DNA from: Escherichia coli O157:H7
Lineage (GTDB): Bacteria; Pseudomonadota; Gammaproteobacteria; Enterobacterales; Enterobacteriaceae
Length of the DNA: 64,000 bases
Assembly (NCBI RefSeq): GCF_013167455.1
Contig: NZ_CP038328.1
Reading direction: 5' to 3' (one strand)
The first letter of the stretch is position 1. Each line of letters opens with the position of its first letter. This document shows, piece by piece, positions 14,770-63,062 of this stretch. The translations under genes and the position numbers were made by a program. Under the pieces are notes generated by a model. It had not been told where the DNA came from. It ran no database searches and was given only the letters and a program-made list of their open reading frames with translations.

Positions 14770-15774
<1,005 letters not shown>

Positions 15775-17240: not shown

Positions 17241-17260
17241 GCCACGGATGCGTCTCGAGA

Positions 17261-18145: not shown

Positions 18146-18153
18146 ATGCAGTT

Positions 18154-19237: not shown

Positions 19238-20548
19238 ATGGAGTCTTTGAATCAATTTGTTAATTCGCTTGCCCCAAAATTATCGCACTGGCGACGTGAT
19301 TTTCATCACTATGCAGAGTCTGGCTGGGTGGAATTCCGCACTGCCACCCTTGTTGCGGAAGAATTGCAGCAGCTCGGCTACTCACTGGCGCTGGGCCGCG
19401 AAGTAGTTAATGAAAATAGCCGGATGGGACTACCTGATGAACTCACTCTACAACGCGAATTCGAGCGCGCTCGTCAACAGGGTGCGCTAGCACAATGGAT
19501 TGCGGCTTTTGAAGGTGGTTTCACGGGTATCGTCGCCACCCTGGATACCGGTCGCCCCGGTCCGGTGATGGCTTTCCGTGTCGATATGGACGCGCTGGAT
19601 CTCAGTGAAGAGCAGGATGTCAGCCATCGCCCCTACCGCGACGGTTTTGCGTCATGTAACGCCGGAATGATGCATGCCTGTGGTCATGATGGGCATACCA
19701 CCATTGGGCTTGGGCTGGCGCATACCCTTAAACAATTCGAGTCCGGACTACATGGCGTCATCAAACTGATTTTTCAGCCTGCAGAGGAAGGTACGCGTGG
19801 CGCGCGGGCGATGGTCGATGCAGGTGTCGTAGATGATGTTGATTATTTTACTGCCGTGCACATTGGCACTGGCGTACCTGCGGGCACCGTGGTGTGCGGC
19901 AGTGATAATTTTATGGCAACCACCAAATTTGACGCGCACTTCACCGGTACCGCCGCTCACGCAGGCGCAAAACCAGAAGACGGTTACAATGCCTTGTTGG
20001 CGGCAGCACAAGCCACTCTTGCACTGCATGCAATCGCCCCGCACAGCGAAGGAGCTTCCAGAGTAAACGTGGGCGTTATGCAGGCAGGAAGCGGTCGTAA
20101 CGTTGTTCCTGCCTCGGCGTTGCTGAAAGTGGAAACACGCGGGGCCAGCGACGTCATTAATCAATATGTTTTTGACCGTGCTCAGCAAGCGATTCAGGGC
20201 GCAGCAACCATGTATGGTGTCGGCGTTGAAACTCGTCTGATGGGTGCAGCTACCGCCAGTTCTCCTTCGCCGCAATGGGTCGCATGGTTGCAAAGTCAGG
20301 CGGCTCAGGTCGCGGGGGTCAATCAGGCCATTGAACGTGTTGAAGCGCCTGCGGGTTCCGAAGATGCCACATTAATGATGGCCCGCGTGCAGCAACATCA
20401 AGGGCAAGCCTCCTACGTGGTGTTTGGCACACAGCTGGCGGCAGGTCATCACAACGAAAAATTCGATTTTGACGAGCAGGTTCTCGCTATTGCCGTCGAA
20501 ACGCTGGCGCGCACCGCGCTCAATTTTCCCTGGACGCGAGGTATCTGA
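19238..20548 (+). CDS. abgA: p-aminobenzoyl-glutamate hydrolase subunit A (M20 peptidase family)
   Basis: 436 aa from MESLNQ. Confidence 0.9.
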   Translation: MESLNQFVNSLAPKLSHWRRDFHHYAESGWVEFRTATLVAEELQQLGYSLALGREVVNENSRMGLPDELTLQREFERARQQGALAQWIAAFEGGFTGIVATLDTGRPGPVMAFRVDMDALDLSEEQDVSHRPYRDGFASCNAGMMHACGHDGHTTIGLGLAHTLKQFESGLHGVIKLIFQPAEEGTRGARAMVDAGVVDDVDYFTAVHIGTGVPAGTVVCGSDNFMATTKFDAHFTGTAAHAGAKPEDGYNALLAAAQATLALHAIAPHSEGASRVNVGVMQAGSGRNVVPASALLKVETRGASDVINQYVFDRAQQAIQGAATMYGVGVETRLMGAATASSPSPQWVAWLQSQAAQVAGVNQAIERVEAPAGSEDATLMMARVQQHQGQASYVVFGTQLAAGHHNEKFDFDEQVLAIAVETLARTALNFPWTRGI

Positions 20549-21993: not shown

Positions 21994-22851
21994 CAACAAC
22001 AACGCAAACACAACAACCGAGGAATGCCCATGAGTATGTCATCCATACCGTCGTCCTCCCAATCCGGGAAGCTCTATGGCTGGGTCGAAAGAATTGGTAA
22101 CAAGGTTCCCCATCCTTTTTTGCTCTTTATCTATTTGATTATCGTACTCATGGTGACGACGGCAATTTTGTCGGCCTTTGGCGTCAGTGCGAAAAACCCG
22201 ACCGATGGTACGCCGGTGGTGGTGAAAAACCTGCTCAGTGTGGAAGGATTACACTGGTTTTTACCCAATGTTATTAAAAACTTTAGCGGTTTTGCTCCAC
22301 TTGGTGCGATCCTGGCGCTGGTTTTAGGTGCCGGTCTGGCGGAGCGCGTCGGCTTACTGCCAGCACTAATGGTTAAAATGGCATCGCATGTTAATGCCCG
22401 CTACGCCAGTTATATGGTGCTGTTTATTGCTTTTTTCAGCCACATTTCTTCCGATGCGGCGTTAGTGATCATGCCACCGATGGGTGCGCTGATTTTTCTG
22501 GCGGTGGGCAGGCATCCAGTTGCAGGTTTACTGGCTGCCATTGCAGGCGTAGGTTGCGGCTTTACGGCTAATTTACTGATTGTCACAACCGACGTGTTGC
22601 TGTCGGGGATCAGCACGGAAGCGGCAGCTGCGTTCAATCCGCAAATGCACGTCAGTGTAATTGATAACTGGTATTTTATGGCCAGCTCCGTAGTCGTACT
22701 GACGATTGTTGGCGGCCTGATAACCGACAAAATCATCGAGCCACGGTTAGGTCAATGGCAGGGAAACAGCGATGAGAAACTGCAGACATTGACCAAATGA
22801 ACCGCCCCGGAAATCCTGGAGACTAAACTCCCTGAGAAAGAGGTAAACAGG

Positions 22852-23178
22852 ATGACTAAAAATACTCGTTTTTCCCCCGAAGTCCGTCAGCGGGCGATTC
22901 GTATGGTTCTGGAAAGTCAGGATGAATATGACTCACAGTGGGCGGCAATTTGTTCCATTGCCCCAAAGATTGGCTGTACGCCGGAGACTCTGCGTGTCTG
23001 GGTTCGCCAGCATGAGCGGGATACCGGGGGCGGTGATGGTGGGCTCACCAGCGCTGAACGTCAGCGTCTGAAAGAGCTGGAACGTGAAAATCGTGAACTG
23101 CGCCGCAGTAACGATATCCTTCGCCAGGCTTCCGCTTATTTTGCGAAGGCGGAGTTCGACCGCCTCTGGAAAAAATGA
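22852..23178 (+). CDS. IS3-family OrfA (HTH plus leucine zipper)
   Basis: 108 aa [22 protein letters not shown]...; ends at A-AAA-AAT slippery region. Confidence 0.9.
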
Positions 23179-23828
23179 TGCCACTGCTGGATAAGCTGCG
23201 TGAGCAGTACGGGGTCGGACCGGTATGCAGCGAACTGCATATTGCCCCGTCAACGTATTACCATTGTCAGCAACAGCGACATCATCCGGATAAACGCAGT
23301 GCCCGTGCGCAGCACGACGACTGGCTGAAGAGAGAGATACAGCGCGTATACGATGAAAATCATCAGGTGTACGGTGTGCGTAAAGTCTGGCGTCAGTTGT
23401 TACGGGAAGGAATCAGGGTGGCCAGATGTACAGTGGCACGTCTCATGGCGGTTATGGGACTTGCCGGTGTTCTCCGGGGTAAATGGGCCCGTCGTCCGTC
23501 TGGCACCATCCATCACAGCGATAAAGGCTCTCAGTATGTGTCACTGGCCTATACGGAGCGACTAAAAGAAGCCGGATTACTGGCATCAACAGGGAGTACA
23601 GGCGACTCGTATGACAACGCGATGGCTGAGAGCATCAATGGTCTTTACAAAGCGGAGGTAATACACCGTAAGAGCTGGAAAAACCGTGCAGAAGTGGAAC
23701 TGGCCACACTAACGTGGGTGGACTGGTATAACAATCGACGATTGCTGGGAAGGCTGGGCCATACTCCTCCGGCAGAAGCAGAAAAAGCTTATTATGCTTC
23801 CATCGGAAACGATGATCTGGCAGCCTGA
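23175..23828 (+). CDS. IS3-family OrfB transposase, internally deleted (first DDE Asp missing)
   Basis: 217-aa ORF; retains HSDKGSQY and DNAMAES motifs but no W..D.TY motif upstream. Confidence 0.75.
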
Positions 23829-49189: not shown

Positions 49190-49206
49190 TTTTTCATTCC
49201 TTTGAA

Positions 49207-50259
49207 TTAAAACGTGACGCCCATTTTGATGCTCTGTTCCGGATGCTGATCGACATACTGCATGTAGCTTTCCGGGCTGTTGGCAAAGGTCACTACCGGG
49301 TCGATTAAATCTTCGCAATTGAGATAACCGTTCATCAGCAGTTTCCAGCAGGTTTCTTCAATACGCTTACGGCTCCAGCGCGGATAATCCGGGTTCGGTT
49401 CACTGCACGCGCGAGAGAAGACAATTTTGGCGTTATTGAAATGCGCTTCGCGTCCGAGGTTAAAACCTTCAGCAAACGGTTTAGCAAACGCGACATAGGA
49501 GATGGTGCCACCGTAAGCCAGGCCGCGCAGCGCCGACTGCAGCGCGTCGGCGTAACCGCTGGTTTCGATAATCACATCGGCACCCTGCTTGCCGGTCAGC
49601 GTTTTGATCTCTTTGCCTACGTCAGTGCCAATGGGATTAAGGCAGAAATCCGCACCGTGACGACGAGCAATATCACAACGATGGGCAATAGGATCGACGC
49701 CAATTACCACCGACGCGCCAGCGCGTTTAGCCAGTTGGATGGCAATTTGACCGATCGCGCCAAGCCCTACCACCACTACAAAATCCCCTACGCGTACGTT
49801 GGCATCGCGAACGCCACTCATGGCAAACTGCGCCGGGTCGTAGCAGACAGCGTTTTTCCAGGAGCTGCCTTCCGGCATTTTGCGCAGCTTGTAGTTATTC
49901 ACTGCGTTAATGATGATCGTCTCGGAGAGCGGGCCGTAGCCGCATACGCTGTCGCCCACCGCGTAGTCGGTAACGTCGCTGCCGCACTCGATAATGTCGC
50001 CAACCACCATGTTGCCAAGCTGGAATTTGCCAAACTCAATGCCGCGCGGCGCATCTGCCGGACGCGGGGTGAACATCTGCCATTCGCCGTTAAAGTCTTC
50101 ATCGATAAACGGGCTGGCGGCGCGGAAGTCGACCACTTCCGTTCCGTGTTTCGGTGCACCGAAACGCACGCGGATCTTCACTTCATTGGCTAAAATCGCC
50201 CGATCTTCATACTCAACCAGCGCAGCAACGCGCGGTGCTGTGGCTACTAACTTTTTCAT
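49207..50259 (-). CDS. ycjQ: zinc-dependent alcohol/sugar dehydrogenase (MDR family)
   Basis: 350 aa; GLGAIG NAD-binding motif. Confidence 0.85.
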   Translation of the reverse strand: MKKLVATAPRVAALVEYEDRAILANEVKIRVRFGAPKHGTEVVDFRAASPFIDEDFNGEWQMFTPRPADAPRGIEFGKFQLGNMVVGDIIECGSDVTDYAVGDSVCGYGPLSETIIINAVNNYKLRKMPEGSSWKNAVCYDPAQFAMSGVRDANVRVGDFVVVVGLGAIGQIAIQLAKRAGASVVIGVDPIAHRCDIARRHGADFCLNPIGTDVGKEIKTLTGKQGADVIIETSGYADALQSALRGLAYGGTISYVAFAKPFAEGFNLGREAHFNNAKIVFSRACSEPNPDYPRWSRKRIEETCWKLLMNGYLNCEDLIDPVVTFANSPESYMQYVDQHPEQSIKMGVTF

Positions 50260-50289
50260 GTAAAACTCCTTGTAAAGAAACTGGCCGCT

Positions 50290-51132
50290 TTAGCCCTTCA
50301 CGCCACCGGCGGTCAAACCACTCTTAATAAAACGTTCCGAAAGCGCATACATAATCACCACCGGCAATGCGGTCACCAGCGAGGCCGCCATCATCCGTCC
50401 CCAGATGTAATCTGGCGTACTGAACAGCGCGTTCAGGCCGACTGGTAAGGTGAAATTGCTGGCGCTGGAGAGGAAAATCGACGCAAACAGATAGTCGTTC
50501 CATGCCACCATAAAGCAGTAGACGAATACGGATATCAGCCCGGACATCGCCAGGGGCACGGTGATACGGAAGATAATTTGCAGACGGTTGAGGCCATCCA
50601 TCATCGCCGCTTCTTCGATCTCATCAGGGATGGTGTCGAAGTAACTTTTCAGCATAAACACGGCGGTGGGCAGAGTTTGCGTCACCATGGTAATGATCAG
50701 CGCCATCTCGGTGTCGTAAATGCCAAGTGCGGTGATAATTTTGAACAGCGGCACCACCAGCAAAATGCCGGAGAACATATACACCGTGTAAAAGCTGGCG
50801 TTGATGGTCATCCGGCCTTTAAAGCGCAGGCGAGAAAGCGCGTAAGCTCCGAGAATGCCGAGAAATACCGCCACCACGGATGAAACCACCGACACCACCA
50901 TGCTGTTACGGAAGTAGTCGACAAACGGGAAAATCACCGGGTTAAAAATGTCGACATAATGCTCCAGCGTCCACTGTTGCGGCAGCAGCGTAGGATGCAG
51001 CGAGATCGCCTCTTTTGCGCTCTTGAACGAGGTCATCAGCATCACAAAAAACGGAAACAGCGTGATGATGAGAAACAGCGCCAGCCCGCGGTAAAAACCG
51101 ATACGACTGAGTGTGCGTTTATTTGTTGCCAT
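50290..51132 (-). CDS. ycjP: ABC transporter permease
   Basis: 280 aa; multi-TM; coupled to ycjO. Confidence 0.85.
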   Translation of the reverse strand: MATNKRTLSRIGFYRGLALFLIITLFPFFVMLMTSFKSAKEAISLHPTLLPQQWTLEHYVDIFNPVIFPFVDYFRNSMVVSVVSSVVAVFLGILGAYALSRLRFKGRMTINASFYTVYMFSGILLVVPLFKIITALGIYDTEMALIITMVTQTLPTAVFMLKSYFDTIPDEIEEAAMMDGLNRLQIIFRITVPLAMSGLISVFVYCFMVAWNDYLFASIFLSSASNFTLPVGLNALFSTPDYIWGRMMAASLVTALPVVIMYALSERFIKSGLTAGGVKG

Positions 51133-51760
51133 TGAGGTTCACCCGTTTCCTGGTCAGCAGAATGACAGCGAAAATAATGATGAAGAGCACCACCGAGATC
51201 GCCGCCGCTTTCCCTAAGTCATTAAAGGCAAAGGCGGTTTTGTAGAGATAGACACCAAGAATATCGACCTTGGTTGTCAGCAGATAAACATCCGCGAACA
51301 TGTAGAACATCCAGATGGTGCGAAGGGTCACCACCGTCGCCAGGACCGGCATAATCGCGGGCAGCGTGACGATACGAAACCGTTGCCAGGCATTAGCGCC
51401 ATCCATCTCTGCCGCTTCGTACAGCGATTTGTCGATGGTCTGCAAAATCGCCAGAAACGAGATAAAGGCATACGGGAAGTAGCGCCAGATGGCGAAGATC
51501 ACCACCAGCACAAAACTACTGCCCGGATTATCGAACCACAGCGGTGCCTGCTCATAAAGATGCAGAAGATCGACGCCGAGGTAGTTCACAATGCCGTAGC
51601 CGTTGTTGAACATGTATTTCCAGGCGAACACCAGCGAAATAGACGGCGTTACGTAGGAGAGGATCACCAGCGAACGCGCGGTTTTGCGCAGGCGGAACTC
51701 GCGGTTGAAAAACATCGCCACTGCCAGCCCGAGCACGGTGCTGCCCGCCACCACCAACGC
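51119..51760 (-). pseudogene. ycjO: ycjO ABC transporter permease, 5'-truncated by prophage insertion
   Basis: permease frame is open from the stop at 51119 up to ~51760, then phage-end sequence; no start codon or N-terminal segment present. Confidence 0.8.
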
Positions 51761-51777
51761 GTGTAACCAGGTGAATC

Positions 51778-51936
51778 ATTTGATACCGACAAGGGTTTTA
51801 GTGAAAGGAGGTGAAATCACCTGTAAGATGCTGAAATAAAACAGGTGATGTATACTTCGGACGGAAAACTCTTTTTGATACCGACTGCTCAACAAATAGT
51901 CAAAAGATCAAAAAACGGCGACACATTTGATACTGC
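51778..51936 (+). repeat. candidate transposase end-binding sites (attL-type direct repeats)
   Basis: TTTGATACCGAC at 51778 and 51873, TTTGATACTGC at 51925. Confidence 0.5.
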
Positions 51937-52117
51937 TAATTTACCCTTAAAATCTTCTTCAAAACATCTTCAAACTGCCAAAATGCTCACATAATCGATC
52001 TAACTATAATCAGTATGATAATCATCATGAATTACTATTCAATAGCGTGATTATCTTGGGATGAGTCATATGATCTCTATATGTATTTACAGCACCACCT
52101 CATGATAGCGATGGCGC

Positions 52118-52729
52118 TTAACCAACAACATTTTTCTTTACTGTCACTGCCCCTGATTCCTGGGTGGCGTTATTGCTCGAGTTGTACTTCTCAATAACGC
52201 GCAAAATCTCTTTGTCTGTTTCTTCACTTCCCGCCATTCCTATCTTTATTGCATTTTTTAGTACGGGACGTAATGGCAAGGCATCAATGATGCTTTCTAC
52301 CGCATCCTGGCTGATTGTAGATGTATTCATTGCTGCCAGCCTGACAAGGTTGTTAGTACCTTCTCGCCTGATGAATGTAAGGATTAATTGCTTCTCTTGG
52401 GGGCTTAGAGAGCTAAGCGCCTGATCAATACCCGAACCTGAATCGCAATTGTTTTCGATTTTTCCGCATTCATCTTCGTTCTTGCCTGTGGCCAACCATT
52501 CGAGTGAACAATTACAGGCTTTAGCTATTAAGGCCAGTTTATCCAAAGGAGGGAAGTTTTTCCCCTTCCTGTAATTTCTTACTGTGGCTTCAGATAGTCC
52601 ACAAAGGGTCGCCAGTTCGACGTTTGTCATGTTTCCCATAGCCATAGCTAAGCGTTCTGAAAATCGGTTTATTCCTTCCATATCAATAAACCGTTCCGCA
52701 CTGGATACGGTTTTTTCTGCCTTATCCAT
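52118..52729 (-). CDS. prophage repressor (Mu c position), XRE-type HTH
   Basis: 203 aa; HTH VELATLCGLSEATVRNYRKG; AGGGGG SD; leftward at prophage left end. Confidence 0.8.
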   Translation of the reverse strand: MDKAEKTVSSAERFIDMEGINRFSERLAMAMGNMTNVELATLCGLSEATVRNYRKGKNFPPLDKLALIAKACNCSLEWLATGKNEDECGKIENNCDSGSGIDQALSSLSPQEKQLILTFIRREGTNNLVRLAAMNTSTISQDAVESIIDALPLRPVLKNAIKIGMAGSEETDKEILRVIEKYNSSNNATQESGAVTVKKNVVG

Positions 52730-52885
52730 ATAACCCCCTATAAAACAAAGAAATTATCAACATCGCATTTAATTTCGATGTGCTCGCAAAAAACCGTTGA
52801 TATCGAATTATTTTGCGATTATGATTTACCTAAATCGATAACCGGTTTTGATTATCGGTTCAGGTAAACATGAGAGGATCACACA
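52730..52885. promoter_or_regulatory. repressor/ner divergent operator-promoter region
   Basis: repeated GATTAT/CGATAA motifs and inverted repeat CGATAA-N10-TTATCG between divergent regulators. Confidence 0.45.
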
Positions 52886-53152
52886 ATGAGGGTATCCAGA
52901 CAAGCATCGAATAATTTGTTTGTTCGAGAGGGGTGTGACTGGTCTGCTAAAGCGGTATATGCAGCCCTTGAAAACAAAGGCACAGACCTCCCTGAACTGG
53001 AAAGGGAGTTAGGATTAAAAAGCGGATCAATGCGCAATGTGTTTTACCGCCAGTGCCGTAAATACGAAGCCGCCATCGCCGAAAAAATAGGGGTTGAACC
53101 TGCTGTAATCTGGCCCAGCAGATACCAGGTGGACGCCAGAGAAGTGGCTTGA
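52886..53152 (+). CDS. Ner-like DNA-binding protein
   Basis: 88 aa; C-terminal VIWPSRYQ matches the Mu Ner C-terminus as I recall it. Confidence 0.8.
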   Translation: MRVSRQASNNLFVREGCDWSAKAVYAALENKGTDLPELERELGLKSGSMRNVFYRQCRKYEAAIAEKIGVEPAVIWPSRYQVDAREVA

Positions 53153-53162
53153 TGGGGGATGT

Positions 53163-55253
53163 ATGTGGGTAACAGCAAAAGAATGTGTTGGTCTTCCTGA
53201 TTTACCAATGATGGAACATAACATTCGCCATCGACTCACAAAAGCAGCTGCGGGAAATGCAGCCATGTTACGCAAACGTAAGGGGACAAAAGCAATCGAA
53301 TTTAATATCGATTGTTTGCCTTCTGGCGCGCAACAAGTATTGCGTGAACGTTATGCCCTTCAACTGATGACGCAAAAAGCTGATGAATCACCGGCTCCGG
53401 TGGTGACAAAGGCCAGACGCTCGCCTGCCGTGGTTGATGCGGTGGAGGCATATCGCGGATCACCACAACTGATGGTTGAACGCCTTAATGCCCTGACTGA
53501 AAACCAGCGCCAGGTGGCTGATGCACGAATCGCGATCGTCAGCGAAGTGATGAAAGTCGCGCAACAACCCGGTTTCAGCTGTGCGAAAGCTATCCGGTTT
53601 ATCGTTGACAACCTGGCACGTTCGCAACTGGACGAGCGCATTGTGGCAATGGTTGAGACGGCGAACGCCAAAAAGGGAAACAGCCGTGCGTTGAGTGAAA
53701 TAACGCTGAAACGCTGGATTGCGGCCTTTAACAAGGCGCAGAACGCCGCTGAACGCCTGCTTTTACTGGCACCGGGTAAGCGCCAGGAAATAAAAGCCGA
53801 AGATATTAACTGGCTGCCCGAATTTCTGGCGCAGTATCGCCAGTCAAACGGCCGACCAATGACCGAGGCTTACGAGGATTTTGTCGCTGAATGGCAGCAC
53901 CGGCACGCTGATGAGCCTTATATGCTCGATATCATGCCGTCTTATGACACCATTCGCCGCGCAATGAAGAAACTGCCGGAAGTGGTGAAACAAAAAGGCC
54001 GGGTGACCGGCAGTGAATACCGCCAGCTTGAGGGATTCACGCGCCGCGACTGGTCCAGAATGCCGGTGAATTATGTCTGGATTGGTGACGGTCACGGCAT
54101 GAAGCTGAAATGCGCACACCCGGTTCACGGTCGGCCATTTGCACCGGAAGTGACCTTTGTTATCGACGGTGGCACGCGCTTTGTGGTGGGCTGGAGCCTT
54201 GACCTGGCTGAAAATGTTTTCGCCGTAGCCGGTGCCATACAGCACGGCATTCGCCATCACGGCAAACCGTTTCTGTATTACTCGGATAACGGCTCCGGGG
54301 AAACCGCCGACATCCTGGATAAGGAGGTTGTGGGGATACTGCCGCGACTGGGGATTAATCACCCGACCGGGATTGCCGGTAATCCGCAGGGACGAGGCAT
54401 TATCGAACGGCTTAACCGCACATTACCGATGCGCATAGCCCGTAAATACCGCACCTATTTCGGGAAAGGTGCAGATCGCGAGACGTTACGCAAAACCAAC
54501 CGCGATTTACGCTCGGCATTTACTGCCCTGCAACAGGGCAAACGGCTGAACGCCCGGCAGCAGTCAGCGATGCGTGATTTACCGTCCTGGTCTGAACTGA
54601 TTGATGCCATTCGTGACGGTGTTGAGTGGTACAACAACCGGCCGCACGATGAATTACCGGTGAAGCCGAACGGCAAGCATTACAGCCCGGCGGAGTTCAG
54701 AAAAAAACGCCTGGCGGAAGAGGACACGGAAATTGAATGGCTGTCCGATGTTGAGCTGCGGGATATGTTCCGGCCGATGGTGGAACGCCCTGTAAGACGC
54801 TGTGAAATACGCTGGCTGAATAATATTTACTACGCGCCCGAGCTGCGTGACGAGCATGGTCGTAAGGTGCTTATCAGCTATGACATTCATGATGCCGAAC
54901 GAATTACCGTACGTCGCCTGGATGGCAGCGTGATTTGCGAGGCGGTATGGGACGGTAATAAACGCGAAGCCTTCCCGGTTAGCGCGGAATACTACAAACA
55001 GCAGCAACGCCTTAAAGGCATGCGTAAACGCGCAGAGGAAAAAATCCGTGATGCCGAGGATGAGGTTGTCAACGTGCTGGAGCACAAGCCGCAGGAGCCC
55101 TGGCTGGAAAACATATACCGCCCTGTGGGTAATACGGTGACCGTTCAGCAACCGGTCGCTGACGATGAACCTGATGAAGAATACGAGCGTAATTTCCAGC
55201 GGGGATTGCAGTTGCTGGAAGCGAAATTAAAAGAAAATGACCCGCTGGCCTGA
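53163..55253 (+). CDS. MuA-like DDE transposase
   Basis: 696 aa; N-terminal W..KEC..LP..P like Mu A; candidate DDE residues in WIGDGHG, YYSDNGSG, IERLNRT. Confidence 0.9.
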   Translation: MWVTAKECVGLPDLPMMEHNIRHRLTKAAAGNAAMLRKRKGTKAIEFNIDCLPSGAQQVLRERYALQLMTQKADESPAPVVTKARRSPAVVDAVEAYRGSPQLMVERLNALTENQRQVADARIAIVSEVMKVAQQPGFSCAKAIRFIVDNLARSQLDERIVAMVETANAKKGNSRALSEITLKRWIAAFNKAQNAAERLLLLAPGKRQEIKAEDINWLPEFLAQYRQSNGRPMTEAYEDFVAEWQHRHADEPYMLDIMPSYDTIRRAMKKLPEVVKQKGRVTGSEYRQLEGFTRRDWSRMPVNYVWIGDGHGMKLKCAHPVHGRPFAPEVTFVIDGGTRFVVGWSLDLAENVFAVAGAIQHGIRHHGKPFLYYSDNGSGETADILDKEVVGILPRLGINHPTGIAGNPQGRGIIERLNRTLPMRIARKYRTYFGKGADRETLRKTNRDLRSAFTALQQGKRLNARQQSAMRDLPSWSELIDAIRDGVEWYNNRPHDELPVKPNGKHYSPAEFRKKRLAEEDTEIEWLSDVELRDMFRPMVERPVRRCEIRWLNNIYYAPELRDEHGRKVLISYDIHDAERITVRRLDGSVICEAVWDGNKREAFPVSAEYYKQQQRLKGMRKRAEEKIRDAEDEVVNVLEHKPQEPWLENIYRPVGNTVTVQQPVADDEPDEEYERNFQRGLQLLEAKLKENDPLA

Positions 55254-55324
55254 AATAAAAAAATAACCCGAGCGGCGACTCAGGTTATTTGATTAAACAA
55301 GGTATCAAATGAGAGGTTAATAAT

Positions 55325-56257
55325 ATGACTGATATTAACGATGTAATCAAGACCATTGATGAACTTATTGATGGCGGCGTACTGACGCAGTATGCCATCG
55401 CCAGAGAGGCGGGAATTTCCGACGGCACATTATCGGCTTTCCGTAAGGGAAAATATAAAGGCGATAACGCTGCTGTGGCTGCTTCCCTGCGTTCCTGGTA
55501 TGAGAACTGGAATAAACAAAGCGCACTGCCGGAACCGCCGCAGTTTGTGGAAACGCAGACAGTCCAGGAGCTGCGCGCACTGTTTCAGGCGGTTCGTCTG
55601 ATGGGCTGTATTAACGTTATTGTGGGCGTACCGGGTGTGGGTAAAACGGCCACTGCCCGTAATTACTGCCAGGAGCAACCAAACACCTGGATGATCACCC
55701 TGTCACCCGCGCACTCCAGCGTCACGGAGTGTCTGCTGGAGCTGGCCGATGCGCTGGGGATTGATTACACCCGCGCGAACAAAGGGGCATTATCCCGCGC
55801 CATCCGCCGTCGCCTGACGGGAACGCGTGGACTGGTTATTGTGGATGAGGCGGATCATCTTGGTATTGACGGTCTGGAGCAACTCCGGGCAATTCAGGAC
55901 GCCACGGGGATCGGGATGGTGCTTATTGGTAACCCGCGCGGATTGTTTAAAGGTGGACGCCGCACCTTTGATGATTTATCGCGCCTGTTCAGCCGTCTTG
56001 CCCGTACAAAACAACTTCGCAAGGCCAAAAAGGCGGATGTGCTGGCCATTGCCAGGGCGTGGGGGATCAGTGGTGAGGCCGAGCTGGCCGTCATGCAGGC
56101 TATCGCTGAAAAGCCGGGAGCGTTACGCGTTCTGACACATACGCTTAACCAGGCGTGGCTCACCGCCAGCGGTGAAGGCGCGGCGCTGACAGAAAAACAT
56201 ATTAATGCGGCCTTTAAAGAGGTTTATACCAACCCTGAATTACTCTCACAGGTGTGA
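55325..56257 (+). CDS. MuB-like AAA+ target DNA activator
   Basis: 310 aa; Walker A GVPGVGKT, Walker B VIVDEADHL; LPEPPQFVETQTV resembles Mu B. Confidence 0.9.
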   Translation: MTDINDVIKTIDELIDGGVLTQYAIAREAGISDGTLSAFRKGKYKGDNAAVAASLRSWYENWNKQSALPEPPQFVETQTVQELRALFQAVRLMGCINVIVGVPGVGKTATARNYCQEQPNTWMITLSPAHSSVTECLLELADALGIDYTRANKGALSRAIRRRLTGTRGLVIVDEADHLGIDGLEQLRAIQDATGIGMVLIGNPRGLFKGGRRTFDDLSRLFSRLARTKQLRKAKKADVLAIARAWGISGEAELAVMQAIAEKPGALRVLTHTLNQAWLTASGEGAALTEKHINAAFKEVYTNPELLSQV

Positions 56258-56481
56258 TTATGGCGGTATTTAATATTCCTGATATTTACGGACGCTTTTA
56301 CCTGGTTAATTTCGATAACGTGAAGGTGATTTCACTGGCCGAAAATAAAGAATGTGGCGATTTACTTTTTGAATTTAATGACCGCACACGAATGGTGATA
56401 TCTGCCGGACTTGATCGAGAAGGTGCGACAGACGTTTACAGCGGAATATGCCGTTCTGTTGGTGCGAAACAAGTCAGCTAA
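56254..56481 (+). CDS. hypothetical Mu-like early protein
   Basis: 75-aa ORF coupled to B stop. Confidence 0.5.
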   Translation: MIMAVFNIPDIYGRFYLVNFDNVKVISLAENKECGDLLFEFNDRTRMVISAGLDREGATDVYSGICRSVGAKQVS

Positions 56482-56748
56482 ATGAGGTGTTATATGAATA
56501 TGCAATCCTGCGGTAACAAAATGAATTTATTCGACTCCCTGAACAGCGCGCGCCGTCTGACCGAACTTGCCGGTGCGGTACTGGAACGCAGTAAGCGCTA
56601 TCCGCAACGTTTTGCACTGAAAACCACGCCGCCGGTAGGCAACGTGCAGGGAACCGGTGAAATTGAAATCACCATACAGACCAACGGCCTGCGCCGCCGT
56701 GTGAAGGCCACCCGCATCAGCGGCTGCACGGTTTACTGGGAGGTGTGA
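56482..56748 (+). CDS. hypothetical Mu-like early protein
   Basis: 88-aa ORF in tightly packed operon. Confidence 0.5.
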   Translation: MRCYMNMQSCGNKMNLFDSLNSARRLTELAGAVLERSKRYPQRFALKTTPPVGNVQGTGEIEITIQTNGLRRRVKATRISGCTVYWEV

Positions 56749-56749
56749 G

Positions 56750-57031
56750 GTGAAAAAAAATCTCATTGCATGGGCGTGGTCGAGTGGTCTTATTGAGTTT
56801 GGTTACGTCCTGCCGGAAGGTGCATTGCCGATAGTTGCCGGAAAGCCTGCCACGGTACGGCATGTGATTGAGGTTATGGCGCGTCATGGACGTGATGAAC
56901 AGGAGCAGTTACTGGTTCCGGGGATACCGGAAGCGGTGACGGAGGAAGAAGCCTTTAATGCCATGATTCGGTTCTGCCGTGAGGTCAGACGCCGGGTCAG
57001 TTATCCAAACAGAACGAGGACCAGAGGATGA
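56750..57031 (+). CDS. hypothetical Mu-like early protein
   Basis: 93-aa ORF. Confidence 0.5.
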   Translation: MKKNLIAWAWSSGLIEFGYVLPEGALPIVAGKPATVRHVIEVMARHGRDEQEQLLVPGIPEAVTEEEAFNAMIRFCREVRRRVSYPNRTRTRG

Positions 57032-57300
57032 GTAAAGTCGTACGCATTATTTTCGAATACAAGGAGCACGTTATCCATAAAAACGCTGATGGAACAGTGC
57101 GCATGGGGGTAAGTCTGGACATACGTTCAACCGGGATAAAGCAGAAAGGTGATGGACCCGCCATGATTTTTGGGGTGGTTATGCTCGCGGAAAGCAGAGA
57201 CTTTGCTGAACTTGTGGCAATGAAAGCCAGTGCGCTCATGAAAGATATGAGCATGCGTTCCGGGGTTATTAAAGGTAATGAATTTAATCAGCAGGGGTAA
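57028..57300 (+). CDS. hypothetical Mu-like early protein (paralog pair, copy 1)
   Basis: 90 aa, begins MSKVVRIIFEYKEHV. Confidence 0.5.
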   Translation: MSKVVRIIFEYKEHVIHKNADGTVRMGVSLDIRSTGIKQKGDGPAMIFGVVMLAESRDFAELVAMKASALMKDMSMRSGVIKGNEFNQQG

Positions 57301-57304
57301 TTCC

Positions 57305-57598
57305 ATGAGCAAAGTACGCGTTATTTTTGAATTTAAGCATGTTTCGCATGACGAAAAACCGGCAGGCAATGACTGTGTTGAAGTGCATGAAAAGATTGGT
57401 GTGGATGTAAAAACAGAACGTGATACGAATAACAGGCCGACGTCACTCTGTGACGTTTATGCAAGTATTCTCCAGTATCACAGTCCTGAAATTATTCAGT
57501 TTCTCTCAGCGGAATTTCAGGCATCTGTACAGGCTTTTGGGGCGGATGCCATCATTAAACGCCACCGCGTGCATAAAGCATCAGGCACACTGCAATAA
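57305..57598 (+). CDS. hypothetical Mu-like early protein (paralog pair, copy 2)
   Basis: 97 aa, begins MSKVRVIFEFKHV. Confidence 0.5.
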   Translation: MSKVRVIFEFKHVSHDEKPAGNDCVEVHEKIGVDVKTERDTNNRPTSLCDVYASILQYHSPEIIQFLSAEFQASVQAFGADAIIKRHRVHKASGTLQ

Positions 57599-57609
57599 GG
57601 AAAAACAAA

Positions 57610-58140
57610 ATGGCAAAACGCGTTACAAAATTAAAGGCCGCAGCAGAGGCGGCACCGCAGACCCGTGAAGAGGTCAGCCGCGATATCCGCACCCTGGGCG
57701 ATATTCAGCGAGAGGCGCTGCGCCTGGAAACAGCGATGAATGATGAAGTGGCAGAAATCACCGCCCGTTATACGCCGCAGATTGAAAACCTTAAAAAAGA
57801 AATCAAAGTGCTTTTTAAGGGGATTCAGGACTGGTGCAAAACCAACCGTGATGAGCTGACGAACGGCGGCAAAACCAAAACTGCCAATCTGACCACCGGA
57901 ACGGTGTCATGGCGACTGGGGAATCCATCATGCAGCGTCAGTCGTGATGTGGAAGGTGTGATTGAAATGCTGCGCCGTATGGGCCTTGAGCGTTTTATCC
58001 GCACGAAAGAGGAAGTGAACAAGGAAGCGGTCCTGGCGGAGCCGGATGCGGTGAAAGGGATTGCCGGTATTAAGGTGAATAAAGGCGCTGAAAGTTTTTA
58101 TGTCGAGCCTTTTGAACAGGACGCCGGACTGAATAAATAA
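57610..58140 (+). CDS. gam: Gam-like host-nuclease inhibitor (DNA end-binding)
   Basis: 176 aa; extensive similarity to Mu Gam as recalled (RLETEMND...ANRDELTNGGK.KTANL.TG.VSWR). Confidence 0.9.
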   Translation: MAKRVTKLKAAAEAAPQTREEVSRDIRTLGDIQREALRLETAMNDEVAEITARYTPQIENLKKEIKVLFKGIQDWCKTNRDELTNGGKTKTANLTTGTVSWRLGNPSCSVSRDVEGVIEMLRRMGLERFIRTKEEVNKEAVLAEPDAVKGIAGIKVNKGAESFYVEPFEQDAGLNK

Positions 58141-58237
58141 CACCGCATTAATCAATTAAATATCACTTCGTTTTAATTATGGCGCTCGCGTCAGGGGACT
58201 GCCTGCGCCTGTAAACTGAAAATAAGGAACAGGATAT

Positions 58238-58780
58238 ATGGCATATTTTTATTTCAAATTAGACCGTGTGCAGACAAATAAATATTTCACCAAATATCAA
58301 CAGACTGTTTTACCGCTACGCAACAGTATTCTTCGGGCATTACTGAAAAATACAGGCGCTGCCGGATTGCGCTTAAAGCCGTTTGCCATGGACGTAATCA
58401 GTGAGTTTTATTTTTCTGGTGCTCTGCCTGCGGGCTGGCGTAAGCGCGATGATGTGGCTTTTGTCGGGGACGGACCGTGCTTTATTGCCAGACCTGATGA
58501 GTCATGCCCTGAAGGACCGGCGATTGCCGCAATGATTGAAGCCGCTGAACGCGAGTTAAGAAAGCGTCCTGATTTCCTTGTCTGGCTCTGTGAAAAGCTG
58601 GGGGTAATGAGAATCCCCTCCATGTTTAACATGGACTCCTGGTGGACCCCGTCGCTCTCCCGTGATGCCCTGTGCGTGGTGTTTAAAGTAGGCGCTTATG
58701 GCAGGGAAATAAAAGGGGGTATTCCTGAAGAATGCCAGGAGATTAAACATTCTGAATATGTGGCGCTGACGGAGGAATAA
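58238..58780 (+). CDS. hypothetical Mu-like early protein
   Basis: 180-aa ORF. Confidence 0.55.
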   Translation: MAYFYFKLDRVQTNKYFTKYQQTVLPLRNSILRALLKNTGAAGLRLKPFAMDVISEFYFSGALPAGWRKRDDVAFVGDGPCFIARPDESCPEGPAIAAMIEAAERELRKRPDFLVWLCEKLGVMRIPSMFNMDSWWTPSLSRDALCVVFKVGAYGREIKGGIPEECQEIKHSEYVALTEE

Positions 58781-58783
58781 TTC

Positions 58784-59317
58784 ATGATTGATGCAAAAGT
58801 GCTTGAAGGGGTTAAAAACTGGCTGAGTATTTACGGGCGTCTGACCTGCGGCATTCTGGCTGAAAAAATGAATATGCCGCCATCCTCGATGGTTTATTTT
58901 CTGCGTGATGCGGTCGATGCCGGGGTGCTGACGGAATGTAACGGTTTTTATGATATTCCGCGTCCCCGCCCGGTGCAGCCGGTTCGTCGCAAATGCAGCC
59001 AGGAAGGTGCGGCTGATGATGTTCAGTGGTGCAGCTTCAGAAAATCCCTGCCGTGGATTGAGGGGCATGATATTCCGTCAATGGCGTGGGAATTTGCTCA
59101 GGGCGTTCTGACCTGTGAAACCGTTTATGTGGTGGCTGAAGTTGATGAGCAGGCCATGAAAGAAGGCGTGCCCCAGTTTGTGATGGCGTATATCGACATA
59201 CGCCTGGGTGTCATTATCTGCGGTTTAAGCGGCTGGAATATCACCTCGCGCGTTCTGCGTTACCTGATTGTTGACCGGACGGCCGCGCCTGCTGGGATAT
59301 CTGCGGAGGTGGCGTAA
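58784..59317 (+). CDS. hypothetical Mu-like early protein
   Basis: 177-aa ORF. Confidence 0.55.
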   Translation: MIDAKVLEGVKNWLSIYGRLTCGILAEKMNMPPSSMVYFLRDAVDAGVLTECNGFYDIPRPRPVQPVRRKCSQEGAADDVQWCSFRKSLPWIEGHDIPSMAWEFAQGVLTCETVYVVAEVDEQAMKEGVPQFVMAYIDIRLGVIICGLSGWNITSRVLRYLIVDRTAAPAGISAEVA

Positions 59318-59832
59318 TGTTCTTTAAAACATCAAACCCTTCCGCGCTGGCCGCGTGGCAAAAATATCAGCAGGACTGCCAGAAAGTTAAGGATGAGGCA
59401 AAACGCCTTGAGGCCGTGCTGAATGTTGCGTGCCGGTCGGTATTTGTATCCGGTATCAGTGGCTTTTGTTTTAAAGGGCTGCGCTTTATGGATGACAAAT
59501 ATCCTTTTCATCGCGACTTATGGCGAAAACCGACTGCGTCGAATGGCTGGAGCTGCACACCGCGCACATCACGTATTCCCAAAGCCCTGCGCGTTGCCTC
59601 TGACGAACTTAACAGTCTGTGGCGTGAATATTCGCCCGTCACGTATGCCAGAACCGATGCACTGTTGTTCTGGCTGGGTATTGATTTCTCGGCAATCATG
59701 TTTGGCCCTGTGAAGTGGTTCTGCGTTGACGATGTGATTTACCTTGAGTGCGGCGTAAAACCCGCAAATCAGAAAATGACCGAAATTCTGTCTGATGAGT
59801 TTTATGCTGCTGAAAAGCGAGTCAGGGGGTGA
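59317..59832 (+). CDS. hypothetical Mu-like early protein
   Basis: 171-aa ORF, start overlaps upstream stop. Confidence 0.55.
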   Translation: MFFKTSNPSALAAWQKYQQDCQKVKDEAKRLEAVLNVACRSVFVSGISGFCFKGLRFMDDKYPFHRDLWRKPTASNGWSCTPRTSRIPKALRVASDELNSLWREYSPVTYARTDALLFWLGIDFSAIMFGPVKWFCVDDVIYLECGVKPANQKMTEILSDEFYAAEKRVRG

Positions 59833-59835
59833 TGT

Positions 59836-60387
59836 ATGATGATTTTACAACCCATGGGGCGAAAAGGTCAGGCACCTGCTCATGTCCGTGCGTGGACACC
59901 TGAAGAAGATGCGCTGCTGATTGCGCTTTATCCATCCACCCCGGTTAAGGATATTGCTGTCAGGGTAAAAAGAAGTTTCTGGGGTGTACATAACCGGATT
60001 GTTTTATTACGCGGTACTTACCCGGAGTTGCTCAAATGCAAACGTCCAAGATTTAAACATGATGAAGATAAATTTATCCGAAAAAATGCCAGAACGATGA
60101 CCGGTAAGCAAATAGGAGAATATCTGGGGCGAGACCGGGATTCTGTCCACAATCGGGCGCGATATATTGGCGTAAGCATGAAAAAATACGGAGAATTGCT
60201 GCCCTTCACCCGTATACCTGACGATGATGTTCATCTTATTCGTGAATTACGGGATGCTGAATCACCACGACGTCTTACCTTCCGGGAAATAGGCGAGAAA
60301 TTTGAATTATCCGAGAGTACGGTGAATTTTATTTATCACCATCGCCGGACTGCCGAGGACGCTGTATTACGGGAGTTAACGCCATGA
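59836..60387 (+). CDS. putative DNA-binding protein with three tandem HTH-like repeats
   Basis: 183 aa; three ~45-aa repeats each with an acidic patch then a T/S.x.EIG....R...V.NR-like helix pattern. Confidence 0.5.
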   Translation: MMILQPMGRKGQAPAHVRAWTPEEDALLIALYPSTPVKDIAVRVKRSFWGVHNRIVLLRGTYPELLKCKRPRFKHDEDKFIRKNARTMTGKQIGEYLGRDRDSVHNRARYIGVSMKKYGELLPFTRIPDDDVHLIRELRDAESPRRLTFREIGEKFELSESTVNFIYHHRRTAEDAVLRELTP

Positions 60388-60569
60388 TAAAGAGACTTGT
60401 ATTTTTCGCAATTTTCGTTCCGGTGTTGGGGGTTGGTTTTATATTTGCGATTACAGGAAACCTGTCCATGATGCCAGATATTTGGTTCTTTATCAGGATG
60501 TCGCTCTTCCTGTTTATTATGAATCTTCTTATCGACATATATATCCGTATTACTGGAAAACATAAATGA
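60384..60569 (+). CDS. small hydrophobic membrane protein
   Basis: 61 aa, two predicted TM segments. Confidence 0.5.
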   Translation: MIKRLVFFAIFVPVLGVGFIFAITGNLSMMPDIWFFIRMSLFLFIMNLLIDIYIRITGKHK

Positions 60570-60940
60570 GAAAAATCACGTCCTTGTCAGAGTTACAGGA
60601 GATGAATATGAGTATTGAATTAAGATCGTCTTATGAGTATCGCAAATTTCTTATCGCCGGAGGCATGAAACCGGAAGATGTGGAAAAAATCGTTTCTTTT
60701 ATGGATAAGGAATGTGATAAGCGGGATGTGTCAGAAATTATTATGGATGACATGATTCTGGATTCAGTCGTGGCGTTAAGTCCGTTATGGATTGTGCATT
60801 CTCTTGCGGAAATTGCCAAAGGCACCGATAAACAGGCAGCTGTTGCTGCCCTTCAGACGCTTAATGAAATGCGTATATCTCCACGCCCGACATTAATACA
60901 GATGATTTTGTCCAGTATGGAGGATAAAGCAAATGAATAG
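60566..60940 (+). CDS. hypothetical protein
   Basis: 124-aa ORF coupled to neighbours. Confidence 0.5.
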   Translation: MRKITSLSELQEMNMSIELRSSYEYRKFLIAGGMKPEDVEKIVSFMDKECDKRDVSEIIMDDMILDSVVALSPLWIVHSLAEIAKGTDKQAAVAALQTLNEMRISPRPTLIQMILSSMEDKANE

Positions 60941-61130
60941 TCTACCCGCTGGATGGGCGCGCCCTCTGATGGCTAAGAAGCATCATTTTTTTAAAACTGG
61001 CGATAATATCAGTATATGTAGGCGGTGGTTATATCTGGCTCATAATCGCGAGCCGGATACATTTGAAAGCCCTGATGACTGTGCCGAATGTCGCAGAAGA
61101 CTGAATAAGGAGAAAGATAATGGACAGTAG
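60933..61130 (+). CDS. hypothetical small Cys-containing protein
   Basis: 65 aa with ICRRW...DDCAECRRR. Confidence 0.4.
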   Translation: MNSLPAGWARPLMAKKHHFFKTGDNISICRRWLYLAHNREPDTFESPDDCAECRRRLNKEKDNGQ

Positions 61131-61416
61131 TTCGCAGTTGTTCTGGTGTTTATATATCACATCGTTTTTCGGTGCATTCGTCATTACACGATGGCTGTGC
61201 CGGAAAGTTATCAGTATTTTTCATAAAAAATACCTGATTGGGCTGGCGGCGACTTCTCTGATTAATGCACTTGCCAGATATCATAAGGGGGAATACTACT
61301 CAAGAATAAAAACTGATGATGGTTTTAATATTTTTGTGATTCCTCCGGAGTATCGGGTTCAGCTCGATCGGGAAAGTAATATCTATCATATCAGCAGGAG
61401 TGTTGATACAGCATGA
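61120..61416 (+). CDS. hypothetical protein with N-terminal TM segment
   Basis: 98-aa ORF. Confidence 0.45.
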   Translation: MDSSSQLFWCLYITSFFGAFVITRWLCRKVISIFHKKYLIGLAATSLINALARYHKGEYYSRIKTDDGFNIFVIPPEYRVQLDRESNIYHISRSVDTA

Positions 61417-61922
61417 GAGGGAAACTGATATCCGCTATTCATGTGGCAAAGCGCGAGCTTGCCCTAGATGATGAGACCTACACATTCGTACTACTGGCAG
61501 CCACCGGCAAAACCAGCTGCCGGGATATGTCACCCGGTGAGTTATCCCGCGTGCTGGATGTTTTCAAAAAACGCGGTTTTAAAGTGCGTCAGAAACCGGT
61601 TAACCGGGCCTTAAAACCGGGTACGGTGACCGCCAAAATTCGCGCCATCTGGAAAGTGATGCACCGGCAGGGCTTTATCTCTGATGGTGCGGAAACCGCT
61701 CTTAACCGCTGGGTGAAATCGCAGACGGCCGCGCAGAACGGCGGCGAAGGTGTGGCAAACTGGCAGTGGCTGGAGCAACACCCCGCCCTGGCCTCAGATG
61801 TGCTGGAGCGTCTCAAGCGATGGCACCGCCGCAAAATGCTGGCCGCGATGGGAATGCCCGAACGCACGCTGATGGGGTATGACGCCGTTTGCAGGCAGTA
61901 TGAAAAATCACTTCCCCGTTAA
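61413..61922 (+). CDS. GemA (Mu gp16)-like regulatory protein
   Basis: 169 aa; N-terminal ISAIHVAKRELALDDETY pattern typical of Mu-like gp16 as recalled. Confidence 0.75.
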   Translation: MRGKLISAIHVAKRELALDDETYTFVLLAATGKTSCRDMSPGELSRVLDVFKKRGFKVRQKPVNRALKPGTVTAKIRAIWKVMHRQGFISDGAETALNRWVKSQTAAQNGGEGVANWQWLEQHPALASDVLERLKRWHRRKMLAAMGMPERTLMGYDAVCRQYEKSLPR

Positions 61923-61991
61923 CCCCAAATCCCGCCACAACGCGGGATTTTTATTTTAAACTTACCGGGAACGCGAGAACCGGAGGCTGAT

Positions 61992-62417
61992 ATGGCAGAA
62001 ACTCAGATGAGCATGTTTGGTGGTGACAGTGAGCAACTGCACGCCCTTATCGACCGCCTTGATGACATCCCTGATGATGTTCTCAAAAAGAACTGGCCGC
62101 GGACCCTGTCAGAACTGGTTGAAGTCACCGGCGCAGAACTTCAGCGTCAGGGGATTGAGCCGGTACTGGCCGGTAAACTGGCACGCAAGGTGGCTGCGGC
62201 TCAGGCAGCCTATATGGGCGGACGGGGTTATTACCTGCCGGTCGGGGAATCTCTCTTTGCCGAGCTGCGAAACAATGAGATATTTTCGCGCTGGGACCGG
62301 GGCGAGAAAATTGAATCCCTTCGCCGCCATTACCGGATGTCAGAAACCCAGATTTATACCGTCATACGCGAACAGCGCCGTCTGCATCTGGCAAGAACGC
62401 AACCGCCACTTTTCTGA
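61992..62417 (+). CDS. Mor-like middle-operon transcriptional activator
   Basis: 141 aa; position after gemA; C-terminal HTH-like SETQIYTVIREQRR. Confidence 0.75.
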   Translation: MAETQMSMFGGDSEQLHALIDRLDDIPDDVLKKNWPRTLSELVEVTGAELQRQGIEPVLAGKLARKVAAAQAAYMGGRGYYLPVGESLFAELRNNEIFSRWDRGEKIESLRRHYRMSETQIYTVIREQRRLHLARTQPPLF

Positions 62418-62488
62418 TATTCCGCAAAGCCTGCCGCCTCTCCTTCACCGTTACGCTGACTCAGAGAACATCATGAGACAGCGTAACA

Positions 62489-62989
62489 ATGCCAAAACTC
62501 CCCGCACCACTGCGTAAAAAGCTGATTGCCCTTGTTCTGGCCGGTGCCGGGACGTTCACGATTGCCACGCATTACACCGGTTACTGGGAAGGGAAAGAAA
62601 ACTCCACGTATATCGATCCCACCGGTACACCCACCATCTGTTACGGCCATACCGGCCCGGATGTGAAACCGGGTATGACCCTGACAGATGAAGAATGCCT
62701 GGAACTACTGGAAAAGGACATGAAATGGGCCTTTGCGGCCATTGATCGGCGTGTTCAGGTGCCGCTTACCCGTGGTCAGACGGTGGCGCTGGCTTCGTGG
62801 ATCTTCTGGGCCGGTGAAACGAACTTTCGCAACTCCACGCTTCTGCGCCTGATCAATGCCGGGCAGATGCCCGCGTCCTGTAAGCAGTATATCCGCTGGA
62901 TTTATTCAAAGGGGGTGAAACTCCCCGGCCTTGAGGCCCGCCGTTCGGCGGATGAATGGTTATGTCGCTACGACTTGCCGAAAGTCTGA
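62489..62989 (+). CDS. endolysin, T4-lysozyme-like (GH24) with N-terminal SAR-type signal anchor
   Basis: 166 aa; Gly/Ala-rich TM LIALVLAGAGTFTIATHY; catalytic-type motif WEGKENSTYIDPTGTPTICYGHTG. Confidence 0.85.
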   Translation: MPKLPAPLRKKLIALVLAGAGTFTIATHYTGYWEGKENSTYIDPTGTPTICYGHTGPDVKPGMTLTDEECLELLEKDMKWAFAAIDRRVQVPLTRGQTVALASWIFWAGETNFRNSTLLRLINAGQMPASCKQYIRWIYSKGVKLPGLEARRSADEWLCRYDLPKV

Positions 62990-63062
62990 ACCGCTTCTGG
63001 CGACCGCTCATGATAGCGCTGCTGTGTGCGGTACTGCTGTTACGGGGTGTCCTGTGGCTGCG

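Follow-up and report, generated by a model that had tools for sequence, protein, structure and literature searches.

Background

Bacteriophage Mu carries three small uncharacterised genes, gp13, gp14 and the antisense gp15, between gp12 and gemA, and their guanine-cytosine (GC) content (45-47%) is below that of the genes on both sides (52-55%). In this work we analysed the same place in an Sp18-type Mu-like prophage of Escherichia coli, found in a 64,000-nucleotide stretch of E. coli O157:H7 DNA (contig NZ_CP038328.1; the whole stretch is referred to as the window). Positions 59836 to 61416 of the window contain five tightly packed genes, g183, g61, g110, g65 and g98 (hereafter the block), which an earlier note on this DNA had pointed out as an accessory region that looked AT-richer than its surroundings. 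Our results suggest that the block is probably a slot for accessory genes, hypervariable in content, within the early (Pe-type) operon of this prophage.

The Mu slot and the block have the same position, strand and flanks (gp11, gp12 and gemA), and both consist of small uncharacterised genes. They differ in length, the slot of the window (1.58 kb) being about double that of Mu (about 0.75 kb), and also in that the block opens with a putative DNA-binding gene and Mu has none at that position. Prediction has classed Sp18, from the O157:H7 strain Sakai, as an intact Mu-like prophage (PMC2669165), and it has the same five genes in the same order (ECs_4956, ECs_5772, ECs_4957, ECs_4958 and ECs_4959). 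The first four are 93-95% identical to those of the window, whereas the gene for the 98-amino-acid (aa) protein belongs to another allelic type, with 50% identity to g98 and 32% in the C-terminal domain. All five are annotated in Sp18 merely as hypothetical proteins, and our literature search found no paper that mentioned ECs4956-4959. Two more distant phages are also relevant. The early region of phage SfMu includes ORF11 and ORF14, which have no homologue in Mu or D108 and whose function is not known (PMC4406740). Pseudomonas phage 14-1, a virulent myovirus of a different host genus, has its ORF85 (gp85) within a cluster of small uncharacterised genes at one end of the genome.

Results

Homologues of gp11, gp12 and GemA were detected by BLASTP in the same order as in Mu (Table 1), the first two before the block and the third one after it, so that the block stands where Mu has gp13, gp14 and the antisense gp15. 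The BLASTP comparison with Mu revealed no homology of any block gene to gp13-gp15, and the sole link of the block to that phage was the resemblance of residues 66-168 of g183 to gp9/E8.

The lineage was found in 232 of the 5,426 complete E. coli genomes, a good number of which are listed as O157:H7 or as other strains that produce Shiga toxin, and the block was matched in 231 of these 232 genomes, the shortest listed matches spanning g183 alone. For 30 loci, drawn from E. coli genomes, IMG/VR contigs and a GenBank phage record, we isolated the stretch from gp12 to gemA and clustered its open reading frames (ORFs), which gave nine gene orders. The order of the window (g183, g61, g110, g65, g98) was present in 10 loci; five loci had g183, o103, o116, g110, g65 and g98, and another five had g183, o103, c46, o95 and an antisense o79. 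The remaining orders were g183, o103, g98 (three loci), g183, o103, g110 and an antisense DUF2513 gene (two loci), g183, g61, o75, o103, o116, g110, g65, g98 (two loci) and three further arrangements found in one locus each.

The only gene present in every surveyed locus was g183 (30/30), followed by g110 (22), g98 (21), g65 (20), o103 (19) and g61, which was intact in 12 loci, frameshifted in one more and swapped for 103-aa and 116-aa genes in others. Homologues of Mu genes replaced block genes in five loci, where c46 was 88% identical to gp13 and o95 was 49% identical to gp14. The g98 gene was found without g110 or g65 in three loci. In sibling phages the flanking genes were 94-100% identical; the two types of g98 were about 50% identical and some g183 alleles about 70%. 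The junctions indicated that cassettes were exchanged one at a time, and in one case the exchange was inside g98 itself, at about codon 36. The expectation that this region holds strain-specific accessory genes was thus borne out for the genes downstream of g183, which vary, but not for g183 itself. The idea of a single uncharacterised module was not sustained, since the downstream genes are separable and g110, g65 and g98 each occur without the others.

Table 1. Position of the block genes, the flanking Mu homologues and the terminator-like hairpin in the window
Feature	Positions	Strand	Remarks
Mu gp11 homologue	58784-59317	+	67% identity (BLASTP vs Mu)
Mu gp12 homologue, left anchor (171 aa)	59317-59832	+	54% identity, E 7e-67; phrog_2314
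g183 (183 aa)	59836-60387	+	ORF in the window
g61 (61 aa)	60384-60569	+	ORF in the window
124-aa ORF	60566-60940	+	ORF in the window; likelier gene g110, 60608-60940
g65 (65 aa)	60933-61130	+	ORF in the window
g98 (98 aa)	61120-61416	+	ORF in the window
gemA/gp16 homologue, right anchor	61413-61922	+	43% identity to Mu GemA; RefSeq 'gp16 family protein'
Terminator-like hairpin	61927-61950	+	9-pair stem followed by a T run, just after gemA and before the mor-like gene

The GC content of the block was 42.4%, compared with 52.9% for the remaining phage DNA in the window, and the GC content at third codon positions (GC3) was 0.40-0.44 in its genes as against 0.48-0.65 in most flanking genes, so that the AT-richness first noticed by eye was confirmed by calculation. 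Only 1.7% of the 1581-bp segments across the 64 kb were as GC-poor as the block. Ranking against a whole prophage was done on the full-length copy of strain STEC2017-197 (38,750 bp, 53.4% GC), which is 99.5% identical and served as a proxy for the prophage of the window; the block fell in the lowest 0.3% of 1581-bp segments, and the repressor end was the sole part of that copy that matched its low GC. As all 30 slot variants had 42-47% GC, and Mu gp13-gp15 are also below their flanks, low GC seems to be a property of the slot, whatever genes are present in it. We found neither a composition like that of the rest of the phage nor the same genes, with known roles, in all the relatives of Mu.

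The five tightly coupled genes that had been proposed were all recovered as plus-strand ORFs, overlapping or nearly adjacent. The spacings from the gp12 homologue through gemA were +3, -4, (-4 or +38), -8, -11 and -4 bases, the third value depending on the start codon chosen for g110. The ratio of non-synonymous to synonymous substitutions (dN/dS), obtained with two diverged alleles, was 0.07-0.26 for all five genes, and each one of them matched a PHROG family, indicating that the five ORFs are real genes under purifying selection. The minus-strand ORFs of the block had no PHROG match and the Rfam scan of the block detected no RNA family. Except for the DNA-binding family of g183, none of the PHROGs matched by the block genes was functionally annotated.

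The consensus scan detected no promoter-like site on the plus strand in 58700-62500 and no terminator within the block, and the hairpin found after gemA is likely to be the end of the early transcript. In Mu the early operon is shut off by the repressor. Because the block showed no promoter of its own and lies between the transposition genes and gemA, we infer that it would be transcribed from the early promoter upon induction or infection, and that it would be repressed in the lysogen. The mor-like gene located after the hairpin (61992-62417) had 39% identity to Mu C and only 27% to Mu Mor.

The g183 product matched phrog_323 ('transcriptional regulator, D5-like') over residues 2-182 (E 6.3e-59), and its residues 66-168 were 30% identical to Mu gp9 (E 2e-8). 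Its AlphaFold model, obtained with nine sequences, contained three 3-helix modules (residues 22-61, 75-110 and 129-169) with a predicted local distance difference test score (pLDDT) of 83-90 in the modules and 76.6 overall, a predicted template modelling score of 0.39 and flexible linkers; modules 2 and 3 aligned to the entire Mu gp9/E8. The three tandem helix-turn-helix (HTH)-like repeats proposed earlier for this protein were therefore visible in the model, but by sequence alone they were weakly alike (z 1.1-2.5) and would have been unconvincing without it. Pfam gave HTH and Myb matches at three places, all of them sub-threshold. Foldseek found nothing significant (best E 0.1), and its top matches (sigma factors or sigma region 4, SelB winged helices and the bipartite Tc3 DNA-binding domain) gave a hint of the fold class only. 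The protein is basic, with an isoelectric point (pI) of 9.9, and the dN/dS of the gene was 0.14-0.26.

Relatives of g183 were found in P2-like phages, as early genes located just upstream of the replication gene or two genes before it, as well as in phage D6 and Klebsiella phage SopranoGao, and g183-like segments underlie mycobacteriophage regions annotated as HNH endonuclease or methyltransferase. In comparison with Mu gp9, g183 has an additional N-terminal module, and it is placed after the gp12 homologue whereas gp9 is placed before gam; to our knowledge, gp9 has no established function. According to the model, g183 is a lineage-conserved early protein that carries three HTH-like modules, as an enlarged relative of Mu gp9/E8, and that presumably binds specific DNA sequences.

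The gene described as encoding 124 aa most likely starts at the ATG at 60608 and encodes 110 aa, because this codon is preceded by AGGAG at 7 nt, the match to phrog_1988 (E 5e-44) begins at residue 15 of the 124-aa ORF, the relatives of g110 in other gene orders always have M(M)SIEL as N-terminus, and the RefSeq annotation is of 110 aa. The upstream ATG (60566) overlaps the stop codon of g61 (ATGA), so that the longer form may be produced in the gene order of the window. When 1.84 billion representative proteins were searched exhaustively with a profile, only 10 representatives of the g110 family were returned. The relatives that could be placed belonged to Mu-type prophages, another Mu-like prophage, SfMu and four Yersinia Mu-like phages, and they were always between the Mu gp12 homologue (where present) and gemA; the g110 product is an acidic (pI 4.8), predicted all-helical protein restricted to Mu-like phages. 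SfMu and Mu-type prophages have g110 without g65 or g98. The match in SfMu was in the early region (8165-8431), in divergent sequence with 37% identity, and we take it to be ORF14, judging from its position only; neither g65 nor g98 is present in that phage. One source labels a relative of g110 as a HEAT-repeat protein, which we could not confirm, as there was no HEAT or armadillo match in Pfam and no fold match.

The product of g65 matched phrog_2358 (E 3e-33), and the gene had a dN/dS of 0.07-0.11. As had been noticed before, this 65-aa protein contains cysteines, three in number. When six members, of enterobacterial origin or from Pseudomonas phage 14-1 (ORF85, 69 aa), were aligned, the invariant residues were G7, W8, P11, K16, H18, F20, S27, C29, W32, E45, P47, D48, C50 and C53, and it is plausible that H18, C29, C50 and C53 form a zinc site. 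No Pfam match was obtained even at E 10, no zinc-finger model matched, and the matches to C2H2 fingers among PDB sequences had E values of 0.3-3. ORF85 of 14-1 was 45% identical to g65 over residues 5-56 and kept the His/Cys3 pattern, and it was without the REPDTFESPDD motif.

By tblastn, g65 was matched in 316 phage records, 289 of which were of Pseudomonas phages; those listed have genomes of about 62-66 kb, such as Pbunavirus 14-1, and the remaining records include phages of Klebsiella, Pantoea, Escherichia and Shigella. The gene was also found in two contigs, a phage one from Buttiauxella and one from Citrobacter with the appearance of a phage-plasmid, and, alone next to GemA and directly before it, in a Salmonella Mu-like prophage. 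Among 35 loci g65 had no conserved partner, and no neighbour family was common beyond a single phage lineage. These distributions indicate that g65 moves by itself among unrelated phages, both temperate and virulent. A screening of 38 early ORFans of Pbunavirus, possibly with ORF85 among them, found few that were growth-inhibitory (PMC8085984).

The g61 product had been described as a protein with two transmembrane segments, and its two strongly hydrophobic segments (Kyte-Doolittle 2.79 for residues 5-23 and 1.91 for residues 36-54) agree with this; as there are also basic residues at both ends, it is probably a two-helix inner-membrane hairpin with in-in topology. It gave a weak match to phrog_19804 (1e-5), had a dN/dS of 0.20-0.26 and was found only in the Sp18-type lineage. 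The g98 product matched phrog_17269, in a family limited to E. coli and to 6 clusters. The basic residues R24, R28, K29, K36 and K37 follow its N-terminal hydrophobic segment, suggesting that the C-terminus is cytoplasmic.

Residues 2-31 of g98 were nearly all invariant between the two types, and since the N-terminal helix retained 83% protein identity despite a dS of 1.7, its sequence seems to be constrained. In contrast, the C-terminal stretch of about 63 residues (61225-61413) was only 32% identical between types, with dS saturated, so that by sequence comparison this domain exists as two old allelic types. Many megablast matches to the block ended at query position 1393, at about codon 36 of g98, which suggests a recombination junction inside the gene. 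A similarity of g98 to Mu gp8 (36% identity over 64 aa, E 0.05) was treated as due to chance.

Some proteins that exclude superinfecting phages, for example T4 Imm and HK97 gp15, are small inner-membrane proteins, and g61, with two hydrophobic segments, and g98, with a single moderately hydrophobic one, are like them in this respect. Neither of them showed a sequence relationship to characterised exclusion proteins; they matched only PHROGs of unknown function, and their relatives were confined to the Sp18 lineage.

Other observations concern the surroundings of the block. In strains 2012EL-2448 and S1-CAM-01-A, IS1 and ISKpn26 transposase genes are annotated within the stretch that matched the gp11-to-mor query (58784-62417 of the window), from which it appears that this stretch tolerates insertions. 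JNEC-KY203 has opposite-strand genes of 140 and 78 aa between gemA and mor (2970-3627) and JE86-ST05 an opposite-strand DUF2513 gene ahead of gemA (2762-3172); such extra genes around gemA suggest that a second variable spot adjoins the slot.

The left end of the prophage is at about 51,761 (TGTAACCAGGTGAATCATTTG...), where an ABC-permease gene of a ycj-type sugar-transporter cluster is interrupted. The minus-strand ORF at 51119-51757 is truncated by the prophage, and its neighbours (49200-51760) resemble ycjP- and ycjQ-type genes by sequence. The junction between prophage and ABC-permease gene was absent from all 5,426 complete E. coli genomes. In STEC2017-197 (NZ_CP075663.1) a near-identical Mu-like prophage is inside a Stx2c-converting lambdoid prophage, where it splits a DUF4224 gene beside the integrase, and near the right end of this copy there are DUF6645, DUF1378 and DUF826 genes resembling those that follow stx. 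This arrangement agrees with the report of Sp18-like phages inserted into Shiga toxin (Stx) phages (PMC10132054). The match between the window and this record was limited to 53329-64000, and therefore the context of the Stx2c prophage belongs to STEC2017-197 and not to the window. The part of the prophage at 51760-53330 (repressor and ner end) was as AT-rich as the block (38-44% GC in 500-bp segments), and since it was unmatched in the otherwise 99.5%-identical copy of STEC2017-197, the immunity region seems to have been exchanged as a cassette as well.

Just before gam, at 57028-57598, two adjacent early genes, o90 (90 aa) and o106 (about 97 aa), share the motif MSKV.R.IFE.K.HV.H with 71% identity. 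We rejected the possibility that they are paralogues, as the likeness is limited to the first 15 residues; the common start may have arisen by duplication of an N-terminal motif or be the scar of a recombination. Outside the prophage, Rfam matches at the gathering score were obtained for DicF (4755), isrK (5032), C4 antisense RNA (5133), RalA (10069, where the window is richest in AT), FnrS (14557), McaS (18052) and the ALIL frameshift pseudoknot (23133). We take the RNAs of this stretch (4755-23249) to belong to cryptic-prophage remnants, an insertion sequence (IS) element and the adjacent chromosome.

Discussion

The comparison of loci, the composition of the DNA and the analysis of each protein together suggest that the block is, quite likely, a mosaic accessory slot of independent genes. 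It consists of the lineage-conserved g183 followed by four small genes that are probably exchanged independently between phages by recombination. That at least some of these genes have host-directed or anti-defence roles is a more tentative proposal, about which we are rather doubtful. In that case each protein would most likely act alone, as a small binder that adjusts either a process of the host or a competing or defending element, with host takeover, exclusion of secondary infection and counter-defence as candidate roles, and g183 might alternatively regulate phage or host transcription. This proposal is based on the small size of the proteins, their expected early timing, their patchy spread, the old allelic split of g98 and the wide sharing of g65. 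Occurrence of the downstream genes apart from one another argues against a five-gene system, their absence from Mu and replaceability against housekeeping genes, and the failure to find a promoter and terminator of their own against a classical moron.

Several observations weigh against the proposed interpretation. The 30 loci were a non-random sample, and the calls of promoters and terminators were consensus scans and not transcripts. About two thirds of the E. coli loci sampled had g110, g65 and g98 together, and some functional linkage among these three genes may therefore exist. With respect to function, none of the five proteins had a significant match in Pfam, NCBIfam, PADLOC or PDB sequences, and in PADLOC and NCBIfam nothing was at or near the cut-off for the five genes and ten alternative cassette proteins. 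The model of g110, with six helices and no other structure, had low confidence (pLDDT 66), and Foldseek found no fold match for it in PDB (best E 0.98). Finally, the 98-aa protein had been proposed as membrane-anchored, and it does have an N-terminal hydrophobic segment, but this segment (residues 7-23) is only moderately hydrophobic (Kyte-Doolittle 1.85).

The alternative that best withstands the evidence, although we consider it unlikely, is that the genes serve the development of the phage, with g183 regulating early or middle transcription or transposition as a counterpart of Mu gp9 and the small proteins acting as auxiliary replication or lysis-timing factors. The presence of g183 in every member of the lineage, its being the only Mu gp9 relative of this phage, the position of its relatives in P2-like phages near the replication gene and the location of the block among regulatory genes (gemA and mor) are all consistent with such a role. 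However, the four downstream genes are dispensable in siblings, where they are swapped for unrelated genes, and g65 is common to phages of quite different replication and regulation, e.g. Pbunaviruses.

Several known prophage exclusion proteins are small membrane proteins, and exclusion genes have been reported in the Pseudomonas transposable phage Fc02 (PMC9936078). The block also encodes small membrane proteins, in DNA whose GC and GC3 are unlike those of the rest of the phage, as would be expected of a lysogenic-conversion 'moron' expressed from the prophage to the benefit of the host. We regard this as improbable, given that neither a coding-strand promoter-like site nor an internal terminator was found in the consensus scan and that the block would be inside a repressor-controlled operon.

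The overlapping start and stop codons suggest coupled translation, and the order g110-g65-g98 recurs in about 20 of the 30 loci, as if the five genes were one co-functional system for exclusion or defence, or a toxin and its antidote, made up of a regulator, membrane effectors and soluble partners. Nevertheless, each of g110, g65 and g98 was found without the others, g61 was replaced while the three genes downstream of it stayed, PADLOC gave no match, and cassettes were swapped singly, on one occasion inside g98, all of which makes such a system improbable. That the block consists of conserved housekeeping early genes or of spurious ORFs in AT-rich non-coding DNA, for which only the position in the early operon speaks, can be practically dismissed: no significant relative of the four downstream genes was detected in Mu, and the one of g183, gp9, is distant and located elsewhere in the early region; the set of genes differs between siblings; and the dN/dS values and PHROG families speak for coding on the plus strand, whereas the minus-strand ORFs lack any family match.

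Returning to the accessory slot of independent genes, it seems quite unlikely, but worth stating, that at least one of the small genes encodes a new inhibitor of a conserved bacterial target. We consider g65 as the best candidate because its His/Cys3 core is preserved between enterobacterial Mu-like prophages and the virulent Pbunaviruses of Pseudomonas, and its spread would fit a broad-host-range factor of counter-defence or host takeover. The second candidate is g98, whose invariant membrane helix and two ancient, swapped and probably cytoplasmic domains are what might be expected of an arms race against a polymorphic partner of host or phage origin.

Conclusions

The slot described here is an ordinary phage feature, since variable early-region slots are familiar, and it reveals no new mechanism; its genes have been known as hypothetical proteins since the Sakai genome. 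Variable slots of early operons tend to harbour genes for host takeover, exclusion and counter-defence, and the genes of this one are suited to testing one at a time and not as a five-gene system. The analysis is useful in that it corrects a gene model, maps the cassettes that can be exchanged and ranks a few candidates, with g65 as the most widely shared gene followed by g98 with its swapped domains.

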